Positions 34,873 through 38,954 of a stretch of DNA of 64,000 nucleotides are shown in pieces. The translations under genes and the position numbers were made by a program. The stretch's first letter is position 1. Each line of letters starts with the position of its first letter. The notes under the pieces were generated by a model. The model had not been told where the DNA came from. It saw only the letters and a list, made by a program, of their open reading frames with translations, and ran no database searches. The DNA comes from Methanobacteriota archaeon (lineage in GTDB: Archaea; Thermoplasmatota; E2; DHVEG-1): positions 1 to 64,000 of the forward strand of contig CAVYNH010000007.1 in the NCBI GenBank assembly GCA_963769885.1, written 5' to 3'.

Positions 34873-35454
34873 TTATTTTCCTTTTCTGCCTGAGGTGAAC
34901 AGGTGGCGTTTGGCATGGGGAAATTGGGCTTCGGCGACGGATTTGACGTCTTCGATGGAGTAGAAGGCGTGGGGGTGGATGCTGTGAATGTGTTGGATGA
35001 TCTTGGGGAGGTCTTTGCGGCGGATGATGGCGGTGATGATTTTGACGGGGCCGGTGTTGCCTTGGCCGTCGTAGGTGGTGACGCCGTAGTTTTCGGCTCT
35101 GAGGCTGTCGATGAGTTGGGTGGTGTCGTGCTTGCAGGTGATGCGGATCATGACCATGCCGATGCTGATTTTCTCTTCGAGGATGATGCCGACGAAGTTG
35201 CCAGTGGCGAAGCCGGCGGCGTAGGCGAGGCTGCAGGGGATGTTGTTGAGGTTGGTCATGATTTGGCCGATGGCAAGCAGCCAGATGTTGATTTCGACGA
35301 AGCCGACGAGGGGGGCGATGTATTTTAGCCCGTGTGATAACGAGATGATGCGGATGGTTCCGAGTGAGACGTCGGTGAGGCGTGCGCAGAAGATGAGGAT
35401 AGGGAGGAGTACCCATTTGAAGAGGTCTGAGGAGTAGAAGCTAAGGAGGTCTAT
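34873..35454 (-). CDS. UPF0316/DUF2179 family membrane protein, apparent ATA start
   Basis: Frame extends upstream of the tracked ORF: (I/M)DLLSFYSSDLFKWVLLPILIFCARLTDVSLGTIRI...AYAAGFATGNFVGI...PHAFYSIEDV; in-frame TGA just 5' of the ATA. Confidence 0.85.
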   Translation of the reverse strand: MDLLSFYSSDLFKWVLLPILIFCARLTDVSLGTIRIISLSHGLKYIAPLVGFVEINIWLLAIGQIMTNLNNIPCSLAYAAGFATGNFVGIILEEKISIGMVMIRITCKHDTTQLIDSLRAENYGVTTYDGQGNTGPVKIITAIIRRKDLPKIIQHIHSIHPHAFYSIEDVKSVAEAQFPHAKRHLFTSGRKGK

Positions 35455-35605
35455 GGCGATGGGTCATCCCCTGGTCGTGATTATAGGGAGGAGAATGCGC
35501 TGTGTTCTTATAAACTCTTCAATTTGGTTGTGTCTTTTTGGGTGTCGAAATCTTTTTATTGGTTTTGTTTTTACCTCTCTGACACACAATTGTGGGGTTG
35601 TGTTG

Positions 35606-35803
35606 ATGAAAAAGCTCTCGGTCGGCACGGATGACTTCTGTCAGAAGTGCATGGATTGGCGTGAGTTCGACGAGAGTGGGAACTGTAAGATCTGCGGGTG
35701 TCATATCAAGAAGCAGTCACAGGCCAGTAGAAGTACGGTGGAGTACGACCTCTCGGATTTCACGACGGAGCATGAGGAGGAGCCGAGTTCCGGAGAGTAT
35801 TAA
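35606..35803 (+). CDS. Small Cys-rich (Zn-binding) protein with acidic tail
   Basis: MKKLSVGTDDFCQKCMDWREFDESGNCKICGCH...EHEEEPSSGEY. Confidence 0.7.
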   Translation: MKKLSVGTDDFCQKCMDWREFDESGNCKICGCHIKKQSQASRSTVEYDLSDFTTEHEEEPSSGEY

Positions 35804-35936
35804 GGCCTCCTTTTTCCTTTGTTTCTGTTGTTACGTTTCTTGTTTAACTTATTAATACTCTTGTTTTAATTCACGATTTTTGTTGTTGGCTGGGATGAGA
35901 ATCCTTAAATTTTGTTGACGCGTTCGTGGTCGTTGG

Positions 35937-36785
35937 ATGGATGCACCGGCGGTGGTTCGAGCCGCGATCTACACGCGGGTTTCGACTGAAGACCAAGCCA
36001 AGGAAGGCTTTTCGCTTGATGCGCAGCTTGAGAAACTGCGTGCGTATTGTACAGCGCGCGGCTGGTCCGTGGCTGGCGAGTACATCGATGACGGGTACAG
36101 CGGACGAAAGGCGAAGCGTCCCGCGTACATCCGGATGATGGAGGAACGGGGGAAGTGGGATACGCTCTTGGTCATCAAGATGGACCGGATCCATCGGAAC
36201 TCCAAGAACTTCATGACCATGATGGAGGAGCTCGGCCGAGAGGGCAAGGAGTTCGTGTCCATGATGGAGTCGCTGGACACGTCGACGGCGATGGGGCGGT
36301 TCGTCATGGATATCATCCAGCGGATTGCACAGCTGGAGTCCGAGCAGATCGGCGAGCGCGTGTACATCGGGATGGAGCAGAAGGCGAAAACCAATGGGGG
36401 CATGCTAGGTTTTAACATACCATACGGGTATGACTACGTCAATGGAAAACTCGTCGAAAATAAAACAGAATCCCCCCAGATAAAAAGAATCTTCGAGTTG
36501 TATCTTGCTGGACAAAGTATGGATAAAATTGCAGAATTGCTTAATCAAGAAGGAATTCCTTCGAAACAGAACAAAAAATGGGGACCTCACACCATTCAAG
36601 TAATTCTTAAGAATCCGCTCTATTATGGATTTCTTCACTGGGAGAAATATATGAACAAGGGGGATTATCCGCCCTTGATCGATCAAAATACTTTCACCAA
36701 GGTCCAAGAGATTATTAAAAAGAGGAAGACGATTGTTCGCCGTCAATTGAAGAAAATCAAAGCACCTACAACCGTAAAAAGTTAG
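35937..36785 (+). CDS. Serine recombinase (resolvase catalytic domain + recombinase DNA-binding domain, no Zn-ribbon tail)
   Basis: YTRVSTEDQ catalytic Ser, DDGYSG, DRIHRN, E helix, PYGY, ILKNPLYYG, PPLID. Confidence 0.93.
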   Translation: MDAPAVVRAAIYTRVSTEDQAKEGFSLDAQLEKLRAYCTARGWSVAGEYIDDGYSGRKAKRPAYIRMMEERGKWDTLLVIKMDRIHRNSKNFMTMMEELGREGKEFVSMMESLDTSTAMGRFVMDIIQRIAQLESEQIGERVYIGMEQKAKTNGGMLGFNIPYGYDYVNGKLVENKTESPQIKRIFELYLAGQSMDKIAELLNQEGIPSKQNKKWGPHTIQVILKNPLYYGFLHWEKYMNKGDYPPLIDQNTFTKVQEIIKKRKTIVRRQLKKIKAPTTVKS

Positions 36786-36792
36786 AGGAATC

Positions 36793-37554
36793 ATGAGGGA
36801 GAATGATTTTTCCTGGGAAATAAAAGCCCAAGCCTTGAAAAAAGCAAATAATCATTGCGAGCGATGTTGGTCCGAAAAAGACCCCGAATGCCATCATATT
36901 GTCCCATATGAGCTCGGTGGTCAATCAACATTAGATAACTGCGTGGTTCTTTGTCATCATTGCCATAACATTGCACCACGTGATCCTTTTCTATTAACAA
37001 ATCTTTTCCTGCGATTCGCCTCCAGTAAAGAATTAATCAACTATTACAATGTAAAAACCGAAGAAGAAGCTATTCAATGCTTTTGCCGAGAAACAAATAT
37101 TGATTTTCAAGAGACGCTTATAAAAATTAGGAATGATCCCTATTCACATGTATATGCAATTAAAAATGGCATGGAGGAACGTGTTAAAAGGAAAGGACAT
37201 GCCGGATTCAACATCCCATACGGATATATTTATTTTCAGGGCGAATTGAAGGTCTACCCAGAAGAAGCAAAGATCGTTAAGGAAATTTATCAGTGGTATC
37301 TTGAAGGAAAAAGCCTGGGTACTATCTGTAAGATGCTGAATTCGGCCCATGTTCGGTCCAAAAAAGGGAGTGTCTGGGCGAAGAAATGCGTTTCTACAAT
37401 TTTGAAAAATCCTGTCTACTGTGGTTACCATAGATGGATGAATCTTTTAGTTGCAGCAAAACATGAAAAGATAATCGACCCAATAGTCTACAATCAAGTT
37501 CAAAAGATGTTAGTGCTACATCATGGCATGCCATTTATCTTGGAGTTAAAGTAG
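36793..37554 (+). CDS. HNH endonuclease fused to a recombinase DNA-binding domain
   Basis: CERC...CHHIVPYELGGQSTLDNCVVLCHHCH; C-terminal GFNIPYGY...ILKNPVYCG...HEKIID. Confidence 0.85.
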   Translation: MRENDFSWEIKAQALKKANNHCERCWSEKDPECHHIVPYELGGQSTLDNCVVLCHHCHNIAPRDPFLLTNLFLRFASSKELINYYNVKTEEEAIQCFCRETNIDFQETLIKIRNDPYSHVYAIKNGMEERVKRKGHAGFNIPYGYIYFQGELKVYPEEAKIVKEIYQWYLEGKSLGTICKMLNSAHVRSKKGSVWAKKCVSTILKNPVYCGYHRWMNLLVAAKHEKIIDPIVYNQVQKMLVLHHGMPFILELK

Positions 37555-37835
37555 GTGTTTTTTGCTTTGGCCGCATCTTTCTCATTCCATTTGGACTACC
37601 GATATGAATGACGAGGGAAATGGAAAAGTCTGGGTTTCCCTCCTGGACCCTTCCTGTTATTCTCCTGATAGATAGGGATGCCAACAGATATGCAGAATCA
37701 TTCTACTTCTGGTTTTCTCGAAGGAGATACCGAGGATCCTCTTGTTTGAGCATCGAAAGCCTGGATTTTACGACGAATTTGGCGCGGCAGCCGCGCATTA
37801 TCCATGCTAGATTTTCTCTTGCACTTGTATATAAT

Positions 37836-37967
37836 TGTTAGCAAGTAGCAATGGACTATGTAAGAGCTATTTGCATTATATGCTAGCAAATAACATGGAA
37901 GATTTGTTAAAGTTTTGGCAATACTTGTTAGCAAATAGCATTGCTGTAAATAAGAGCCATGCTAACA
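37836..37967. repeat. Three TGYTAGCAARTARCA boxes at exact 45-bp spacing plus an inverted TGCTAACA
   Basis: TGTTAGCAAGTAGCA at 37836, TGCTAGCAAATAACA at 37881, TGTTAGCAAATAGCA at 37926; TAAGAGCYAT at 37861 and 37951; TGCTAACA at 37960. Confidence 0.75.
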
Positions 37968-38285
37968 CGAATTTATCGATTTCATTTCTTCCCTTTACAA
38001 ATTAACTAAGAAGCATTACAAACTTCACAAAATAACGATAAGAATTGAATTCACCGAAAATCAGCCAAAAAAATCACCACAAACCCATCCGTACGAGCAG
38101 ATATCCGTCGTCACAGCCGAACACACCAGCCGACCTCATTGCTCCTGCCTCCGCCATAACCACACAATCCAGACCAGTTTAAAATAAAAAAAATACCGAA
38201 ATTTAACAGGTAAATCCTAGAAAAAATCATGTGTGACGAAATATTCAAATACGAGGGAAGCGCTCCCCGACATGGGGGAACCAAG

Positions 38286-38954
38286 ATGAAGATCCATAAC
38301 ATTGTCCCACTCATTGTCATCGGCTGCGTCCTGATGGCATCGGTCGGATACACGCAAAAGGCCACCGACACCCAACAGAACACCTTAACCACCGTCGACT
38401 TCGTCGACTGCACCGGCCACACCCCAATCACCCGCACCATTCAGATGCCCACCAGCCAATGGCGCGCGCTCCAACACGACCTCAGTGAAATCAGATCCTC
38501 GGGTCCGCTCACCAAAGAGTCCTTTACCGCCCAGATCCACGTACTCCAGCACTACGGCCTCATCAGCAACGATGCCGCCACCACCCTCTATCCGCACTAT
38601 GCCACGCGAACCAGGACCGTCCTCCCCGCGATCAACAACTCCAACATCAACGCGATGTGCGCCATCAGCGTCACCCTCAACAGCATCACCCCTAACGGGA
38701 GCACCGTCGTCCTCGGGCTGAACAGCTTCATCAACTACATCGGTTTCGACATCGTCAGCTTCCATTACGGTAACGCCACCGACGGCATCCAGACCACCGG
38801 GCTCGTCAAGAAGACCTCGCCGCCCGGCGAATACTCCGGTTTCATGTTCGGCTTCCTCGGTTATTGGGTCGGTGAAAAAATAAAAACCGGCGTCTACAAC
38901 AACCTCACTGCTGTCGGCTTCACCGTCATCACCGCCTGGATCCCCGTCCTCTAA
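38286..38954 (+). CDS. Secreted hypothetical protein
   Basis: Signal peptide MKIHNIVPLIVIGCVLMAS; C-terminal GFMFGFLGYW...GF motif loosely like 611/1428. Confidence 0.75.
   Translation: MKIHNIVPLIVIGCVLMASVGYTQKATDTQQNTLTTVDFVDCTGHTPITRTIQMPTSQWRALQHDLSEIRSSGPLTKESFTAQIHVLQHYGLISNDAATTLYPHYATRTRTVLPAINNSNINAMCAISVTLNSITPNGSTVVLGLNSFINYIGFDIVSFHYGNATDGIQTTGLVKKTSPPGEYSGFMFGFLGYWVGEKIKTGVYNNLTAVGFTVITAWIPVL

Follow-up and report, generated by a model that had tools for sequence, protein, structure and literature searches.

A short serine recombinase, Rec1, and a protein in which an HNH nuclease head precedes a recombinase domain (RD), referred to here as HNH-RD, are encoded by adjacent genes. 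These form a module of two genes that recurs in the Thermoplasmata, is subject to exchange, and has so far not been described, and not a one-off fusion. The pair was encountered in a 64,000-nucleotide stretch of DNA (the window) from a Methanobacteriota archaeon (GTDB lineage Archaea; Thermoplasmatota; E2; DHVEG-1), corresponding to positions 1 to 64,000 of the forward strand of contig CAVYNH010000007.1 in assembly GCA_963769885.1.

Architecture and distribution of the module

The rec1 gene (35,937–36,785, forward strand) encodes 282 aa, in which Pfam places a Resolvase catalytic domain (PF00239, aa 9–152, E = 9e-38) ahead of a Recombinase domain (PF07508, aa 177–263, E = 9e-24), the latter being of the type denoted A below. 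The catalytic domain is encoded at 35,961–36,392 (forward), with a host-like GC content of 56–62%. The HNH-RD gene (36,793–37,554, forward) is separated from the rec1 stop by seven bases, with GAGG located 5' of the second gene's ATG, and its 253-aa product comprises a zinc-knuckle HNH head, a conserved helical linker, the end of helix E, and an RD of type B. In this protein, PF01844 (HNH) covers aa 22–59 (E = 3e-9), and PF07508 covers aa 156–240 (E = 7e-21). The HNH motif (36,856–36,969, forward), as read from Pfam and an alignment of 21 members, consists of C22, C25, H34-H35, N49, C54, C57, and H58, and is intact in the window. [quoted passage not shown]

The C-terminal halves of the two proteins are 35% identical over 116 aa (E = 1e-23), with the homology beginning approximately 14 aa ahead of the GFNIPYGY motif, at the end of helix E, and with the GFNIPYGY, ILKNPxYxG, and xID motifs common to both. 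The GFNIPYGY codons mark the start of each RD, at 36,408–36,431 for type A (J1) and 37,204–37,227 for type B (J2), both on the forward strand, and form a repeat (D6) whose two copies are 83% identical and spaced by 796 bp. In the AlphaFold2 model of gene 2 (21 homologues; pLDDT 85.5), the HNH head (aa 1–114) is accompanied by a four-helix linker, a long helix (aa 119–134), and an alpha/beta domain. Foldseek matched the alpha/beta domain to the DNA-bound recombinase domain of the large serine recombinases, or LSRs (4kis_A, E = 2.7e-7, and also 6dnw), and the head to the McrA (6ghc) and Gme HNH (4h9d) nucleases. HNH-RD is very probably an RD-guided DNA-binding protein, in which the HNH head is placed where the recombinase catalytic domain would be. 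The initial annotation, made from the sequence of the window, had read gene 1 as a resolvase catalytic domain plus a recombinase domain, and gene 2, seven bases further on, as an HNH domain joined to a paralogous recombinase domain; both readings are borne out, including the recombinase-domain fold of the C-terminal half of 36,793–37,554, which was recovered by profile search and structure prediction.

The architecture recurs well beyond the window. A word-indexed search recovered about 25 clusters at 90% identity, named in the NCBI records only as "recombinase family protein", and an exhaustive HMMER search of 1.84 billion representatives with a profile of the HNH head and linker returned only 15 representatives at E <= 1e-10; at 50% identity, HNH-RD has about 14 representatives. 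All of the matches of 230–270 aa that were scanned with Pfam (10/10) carry PF07508 after the N-terminal domain. The fusion was confined to archaea of the Thermoplasmata in the searches made, and searches of IMG/VR and of the phage records in GenBank recovered no copy. PADLOC returned no system match for the pair, no NCBIfam family covers HNH-RD, and full-text literature searches found no description of a protein combining HNH with PF07508, or of a rec1/HNH-RD operon, which is in keeping with the earlier remark that this architecture was not known from characterized systems. HNH-RD thus appears to represent an undescribed family of modular DNA-targeting nucleases, kin to the modular HNH nucleases and to serine-recombinase partners.

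Among the 197 genomes of the class, a full-length HNH-RD is present in eight (G000, G001, G117, G087, G084, G110, G041, and G039), and a broken copy in one more (G022). The gene lies directly 3' of rec1, on the same strand, in eight loci, that is, in all of the full-length or broken copies except that of G001, usually at a distance of 0–60 bp, and it still stands beside rec1 where it is rearranged, as in G001 and on the P0013 contig. Every locus with readable neighbors has HNH-RD adjoining the short serine recombinase, so the search suggested earlier, for HNH proteins with PF07508 and without PF00239, recovered a recurrent family that co-occurs with rec1 throughout. The pairing is also kept by members with approximately 30% identity from GC-rich soil Thermoplasmata, with a 4-bp overlap in locus L058 and no gap in L061, and with a uniform GC content. 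Close relatives have HNH-RD only sporadically, always in the same place, and some of them retain decayed remnants of it, which is the pattern of a homing endonuclease gene.

In the two soil loci, where the HNH head lacks its catalytic residues, the pair is followed by a gene for a 47–51-aa DUF7557 protein (L061:4122–4265; L058:1856–2011), which is ribbon-helix-helix-like by its sequence pattern. In L061, this gene is followed, in turn, by one for an AAA/RFC-type ATPase. The window showed no counterpart of this arrangement.

The first gene of the module has a different standing in the genome. Rec1 has the nucleophilic serine and conserved arginines of the serine recombinases, which are absent from the product of gene 2, together with the whole catalytic domain, and Ser16, Arg14, and D83-R84..R87 (the DRIHR motif) are invariant in 23/23 orthologues. 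In both proteins, PF07508 follows helix E, as in the LSRs, and neither has the C-terminal zinc ribbon with an embedded coiled coil; both stop about 20 aa past the recombinase domain, where Pfam adds nothing. The NCBIfam models of CcrA, CcrB, and XisF match Rec1 over their first ~240–280 positions only, far under the cut-off. It is the only serine recombinase in the whole 2.09-Mb genome, and is present in single copy in five further genomes from five genera and two families (G117, G023, G084, G003, and G045), in which a distance of 0.5–4.5 kb separates it from an S8e gene of the same orientation, while synteny with the sister species (G001) extends over both flanks of the locus in the window. 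The catalytic domain has 81–86% amino acid identity to the orthologues of other genera or another family, against 60–74% for S8e in the same genome pairs. Given this single copy, the synteny near S8e, the high conservation of the catalytic domain, and its host GC in the window, rec1 is a core host gene of the Thermoplasmata, and not part of an ordinary mobile element. The catalytic domain of this core recombinase thus exceeds a ribosomal protein in its conservation, and the conserved DNA elements nearby make its function testable.

The possibility that Rec1 stands in for Xer in the resolution of dimers is weakened by the eight tyrosine-recombinase matches in the genome, two of which are strong. 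A small gene just 5' of rec1 (35,631–35,803) encodes a Cys-rich, zinc-ribbon-like protein, which is kept in the sister species and in an independent ENA contig (L047), and which matches no Pfam or NCBIfam family.

Recombinase domain types, lateral exchange, and decay

The RDs form two deep clades in the tree (support 100/99), with diagnostic motifs of ..TKQNK.WG[PST] in type A and ..TKKGG.WAK in type B. Solitary rec1 genes bear one type or the other, even inside a single genus, and the tandem loci all have type A on Rec1 and type B on the HNH protein. The HNH protein bears the RD type that is absent from the adjacent Rec1 in all ten loci (10/10). It had been proposed initially that the nuclease was aimed at the recombinase's own site or a related one; given that the HNH protein never has the type of its neighbor, a different site is favored. 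The idea that type A is supplied by the cassette only was rejected, as A-type RDs are found on solitary rec1 genes, though in at least one case (G068) the locus is a tandem one that has decayed.

The arrangement is reversed in the sister species, G001, in which Rec1 carries the catalytic domain with type B, the HNH protein carries type A, and the two genes are convergent. The type B domain on Rec1 is 63% identical to that of the window, and the type A domain on the HNH protein is 82% identical, at the protein level, to the RD of the window's Rec1. The DNA map of this locus reads, in order, the catalytic domain, the junction codons and RD(B), the region of the boxes described below, and an inverted unit of 1.17 kb with the HNH head, the junction codons, and RD(A). 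The ends of this unit retain approximately 50 bp of a tandem junction, with the last RD(A) codons before the start of the HNH gene, and, past the stop of RD(A), an HNH start that has mutated. It is also bordered by a direct duplication of about 65 bp of its target, which corresponds to 37,990–38,060 (forward) in the window (alignment A3 with the G001 sequence). These tandem-junction remnants and the flanking target duplication indicate that the reversed arrangement is the product of recombination at the GFNIPYGY codons of a window-like tandem layout, followed by re-insertion. The unit (L014:7120–8290) contains the HNH-RD(A) gene only, with a GC-rich hairpin after it, and sits between the box array and the next gene, resembling a tiny discrete insertion.

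A metagenome contig has a comparable arrangement, with the catalytic domain and type B, a 645-bp spacer, and the HNH head with type A in direct orientation, and the HNH/catalytic label switches at least four times on the RD tree. The GFNIPYGY codons themselves were considered as a recombination site under conservation, which was rejected because genomes differ freely at the synonymous positions; the swap is therefore not a conserved site-specific event.

The composition of the window points to a further exchange. The GC content falls from ~60% to ~38% at approximately position 36,400, exactly at the junction of the catalytic domain and RD within rec1, and the low-GC coding tract (33–43% in the GC profile; 36,400–37,554, forward) takes in the RD of Rec1 and the whole HNH-RD gene, with the low GC running on to ~38,250. 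The same step is found in L047 and G001, that is, in three assemblies in all, and for this reason everything 3' of the catalytic domain in the window's genus was replaced by the DNA of a low-GC relative, with the left crossover in conserved coding sequence. A sharp GC step inside a gene would also be expected of a chimeric assembly that joined a GC-rich recombinase to low-GC DNA of another organism, an explanation of vanishingly small probability here, as the step and the gene order recur in L047, the step recurs in G001, the synteny continues on both sides, and the genome is assembled in seven contigs; the two independent assemblies exclude a chimera. A break at this junction is compatible with homing-type cleavage near the insertion point, and is not a demonstration of it.

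The locus also changes its layout among close relatives. In genus g18, one tandem locus is found together with seven that have a second recombinase gene, rec2, and a short HNH gene, and at least five with rec1 alone; Rec2 is 27% identical, and the short HNH of ~120 aa overlaps its 3' end in this genus. Approximately 20 relatives have rec1, then rec2 (248–268 aa, with a catalytic domain ~27% identical to that of Rec1), and then a stand-alone HNH of ~120 aa that overlaps the 3' end of rec2 (for example, L037:756–1764, L032:753–1845, L027:876–1800, and L102:429–1175), and is related to the HNH head of the window. Two members of genus g8 (G084 and G087) have HNH-RDs from different subclades. A stop and a frameshift disrupt the copy in G022, and in G068, what remains after the A-type rec1 is no more than 40 aa of HNH and 75 aa of RD(B). 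This lateral exchange and decay of the module add a history to the pair that the initial annotation had not foreseen.

Decay of another kind affects the nuclease head. The H-H/N/H residues are kept in 18 of the 21 closest members, and are lost in a single subclade of these (G039, G041, and P0022), while at least eight of the more distant representatives at 50% identity have the catalytic residues replaced. The dead-HNH members retain the four cysteines, the AP.DP..F..FLRFAS.KE motif, and the RD. As the catalytic residues are replaced in roughly half of the more distant representatives while the gene and its pairing persist, cutting, contrary to the nuclease function proposed initially, is not always part of the function.

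Elsewhere in the window (1–64,000), GC-skew blocks are very strong (|0.3–0.46| in 2-kb windows), with a sign that alternates every 4–8 kb, and further low-GC islets are found at 48–54 kb and 62–64 kb.

Non-coding elements of the locus

Three 15-bp boxes (TGYTAGCAARTARCA) follow the operon at 37,836–37,940 on the forward strand (starting at 37,836, 37,881, and 37,926), as direct repeats with an exact 45-bp period. When two or fewer mismatches are allowed, the window has three matches against 0.33 expected, and with one or fewer, these three are among only four matches in the 2.09-Mb genome. An inverted partial box (TGTTAGCA...) was read from the sequence at 37,954–37,967 (reverse strand), and is conserved in alignment A1. 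The boxes are conserved in G001, with a 44-bp period, and in L047, with two exact pattern matches, and no comparable array was found after the pair in six other genera. They do not have the arrangement of a res-type site, that is, three subsites of inverted ~12-bp half-sites with unequal spacing, conserved together with the resolvase.

In many genera, rec1 is followed by a non-coding region of 600–830 bp, whether the HNH gene is there or not, and with varied genes downstream. The three-box array is, by this comparison, a local, genus-specific elaboration of this wider region. Given that the boxes are genus-specific, and that the surrounding region follows rec1 even without the HNH gene, they are not a defining part of the pair, and were rejected as a conserved component of it, being confined to the window's genus-level group. 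The three-box site reported initially is thus real, with its exact spacing of 45 bp, and the co-occurrence of boxes and pair that was to be looked for did not extend to the six other genera.

Two other elements of this region are shared more widely. A degenerate copy of a palindrome or hairpin found after the last gene of the rec1 locus lies at 37,583–37,610 (forward; alignment A4); in other genera, the element reads TCAAyTTCGG-N4-CCGAAGTTGA, with pattern matches in 11 loci, and a hairpin-like TTCGG-N4-CCGAA after the last gene was seen in many genera. A 19-bp palindrome (TGMTAGAT-N3-ATCTAKCA) lies at 37,805–37,823 (forward), and is conserved approximately 250 bp after the operon in many genera. 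It also occurs once or twice just 5' of the TATA-like element of rec1 in low-GC relatives. Examples of the positions of these two elements in relatives are L048:2390–2405, 2591–2604, and 1149–1162, and L025:816–829 and 2749–2762. As the 19-bp palindrome is the same in A-type and B-type genomes, an RD does not have it as a target specific to its type, and another factor may bind it.

A 13-nt near-repeat, CATGCTAG[GA]TTTT, was also observed at 36,401–36,413 and 37,803–37,815, where it coincides with the GC break in rec1 and with the left half of the 19-bp palindrome, respectively. The first copy is coding (..MLGF..), and is common to G001, G117, and G087, and not to four other tandem loci. No RNA family was found by Rfam in 35,300–38,400.

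Proposed role and comparison with known systems

The reading tentatively preferred here, held with rather less than even confidence, is that HNH-RD is an RD-guided nuclease aimed at the sites of the other RD type, which drives the replacement of the locus by a process akin to homing or allele competition. The RD would dock on a specific half-site motif, as suggested by the structures of LSRs bound to DNA, and the HNH head would lie near the center of the site, in place of the recombinase catalytic domain, where it would nick or cut. The target would most likely be the site type of the alternative rec1 allele, and not that of the resident one, because the HNH protein always carries the RD type absent from the adjacent Rec1. 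Cutting in relatives, or in incoming DNA, with the other layout would provoke recombinational repair, anchored in the highly conserved sequence coding for the catalytic domain and in the flanks, which would replace the other layout by a rec1 of type A and an HNH-RD of type B, as in homing or allele competition. Once fixed, the nuclease would become dispensable, and would either decay or survive as a DNA-binding protein only.

This reading is favored by the rule of opposite types, the lateral replacement with its edge in a conserved gene, the decay, and the changes of layout inside genera. If the nuclease does drive the replacement of the locus, archaeal chromosomes would harbor in this module an element of the homing type, with a recombinase gene as its target. 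A bolder extension, which is speculative and unlikely, is that two DNA-recognition alleles compete at the core recombinase locus in the manner of a gene drive, in which one reader module is interchangeable between "recombine" (Ser) and "cut" (HNH) heads, and a nuclease with the reader of one allele destroys or converts the chromosomes that use that allele. If so, it would offer a natural precedent for the re-targeting of nucleases with LSR recognition domains, and the chromosomes of archaea would contain selfish DNA of a new kind.

A number of findings weigh against this role. The DNA target of HNH-RD and its cleavage are themselves predicted, and the opposite-type rule may reflect as few as two independent events, namely, common descent and one reciprocal swap. 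The conserved palindromes around rec1 are alike in A-type and B-type genomes, and therefore offer no obvious type-specific targets. The RD(B) of the HNH protein in G084 is only 57% identical to that of Rec1 in its congener G008 (genus g8), and it was accordingly not in recent times that the nuclease acquired an RD from a resident gene; such a capture, at the time that the cassette split rec1, was rejected on the basis of this divergence of the B domains in g8 and of the fact that the HNH-linked B domains form their own clade. The main argument is provided by the members at 28–38% identity, which have lost the catalytic His/Asn/His, and yet have the four cysteines, the linker, an intact reading frame, a tight pairing with rec1, and a uniform host GC content. 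A homing endonuclease would not be retained in the long term once inactive, and the persistence of these members is more in line with selection for a role as a partner, other than as a nuclease, than with a gene that is purely selfish.

The first rival reading is a cooperative two-component system, in which HNH-RD would be an accessory subunit of Rec1 that acts at accessory or neighboring sites to aid, direct, or limit recombination, with nicking being optional. This is nearly as probable as the preferred reading. It would account for the gap of 0–7 bp, or overlap of 4 bp, that is kept from the window to the ~30%-identity members in other Thermoplasmata with uniform GC, the retention of the zinc knuckle, linker, and RD by the dead-HNH members, the related short HNH whose gene, in ~20 genomes, shares the locus with rec2 and overlaps its 3' end, and the conserved palindrome-bearing non-coding region after the operon. 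However, most rec1 genomes have no HNH partner at all, which indicates that Rec1 is independent of one, HNH-RD copies decay, the layout of the locus changes within genera, and the two RDs, being of different types, are unlikely to read the same half-sites. A role as a DNA-binding regulator or competitor, in which the RD serves a repressor or site-blocker, and the HNH fold is merely a structural zinc module even where the catalytic residues are present, is improbable. It is consistent with the replacement of these residues in P0017, P0022, P0025, and at least eight of the representatives at 50% identity, and with the columns that never vary, which are those of the four cysteines and linker, and not of the His/Asn, but the clade of the window keeps H-H, N, and H in 18 of 21 sequences at 45–75% identity, which implies selection on catalysis, and the short stand-alone HNH relatives also retain their catalytic residues.

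It is more doubtful still that the pair is a specificity-switching device, in which the RD segments are cassettes swapped between recombinase and nuclease at the GFNIPYGY codons, thereby re-aiming the recombinase. The reciprocal exchange in G001, with both reading frames intact, the metagenome contig in which this exchange is also seen and the HNH gene is oriented the other way, and the changes of the HNH/catalytic label on the RD tree (at least four) would all be accommodated by such a device. Nevertheless, the DNA of the junction is conserved no further than the protein demands, the seven other tandem loci all have type A on Rec1 and type B on HNH, and an exchange in the tandem layout would delete 796 bp rather than swap the segments; the copies in G001 have also diverged, so that the event is old.

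The module shares features with several known systems. The LSRs, such as the phiC31, Bxb1, and Listeria A118 (LI) integrases, CcrA/CcrB, and XisF, are leading tools for genome writing, and read DNA by means of the recombinase domain, while their zinc-ribbon/coiled-coil domain serves the discrimination of att sites and the control of synapsis. Rec1 has the serine catalytic domain, helix E, and recombinase domain of these proteins, and the product of gene 2 has the helix-E end and recombinase domain, with a fold that matches 4kis and 6dnw. Unlike the LSRs, both proteins lack the zinc-ribbon/coiled-coil domain, rec1 belongs to the syntenic core of the chromosome and is not the integrase of a phage or island, and the product of gene 2 lacks the serine catalytic domain. 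The natural joining of an LSR reader to a nuclease head, and the exchange of readers in G001 with both proteins intact, demonstrate the portability of this module.

An array of three related boxes close to the gene of a serine recombinase recalls the res sites of Tn3 and gamma-delta, from which the boxes differ in being direct, 15 bp in length, 45 bp apart, 3' of the operon, and genus-specific. The exchange of DNA-recognition modules between two frames at a conserved junction is also a property of the shufflons (hsdS, Rci/Min), whereas the RD exchange is old and rare, and has no conserved DNA site at the junction.

Insertions of homing endonucleases are known to split host genes, as in the nrdA gene of T-even-like phages, which is split by mobE, or to leave them as fractured genes (PMC2677866). 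The succession of a catalytic domain, RD(A), a stop, an HNH head, and RD(B) has the look of a host gene into which an insert with a nuclease has come at the boundary between domains. In contrast with the fractured genes, however, the HNH-linked RD(B) belongs to a lineage of its own and of old date, and is not a resident domain displaced recently; each of the two products is a whole protein of two domains, and there is neither an intein nor an intron. The free-standing HNH homing endonucleases, such as I-HmuI and MobE of T4 (PMC2790892), also combine an HNH head with a separate sequence-reading module, and resemble HNH-RD in their position beside a highly conserved gene, their sporadic occurrence, the signs of lateral transfer, and the dead or decayed copies. 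HNH-RD differs from these enzymes in that its reader is a recombinase domain of the LSR kind and a paralogue of the one in the neighboring gene, in that its pairing outlasts the death of the nuclease, and in its location in archaeal chromosomes, rather than in phages or introns.

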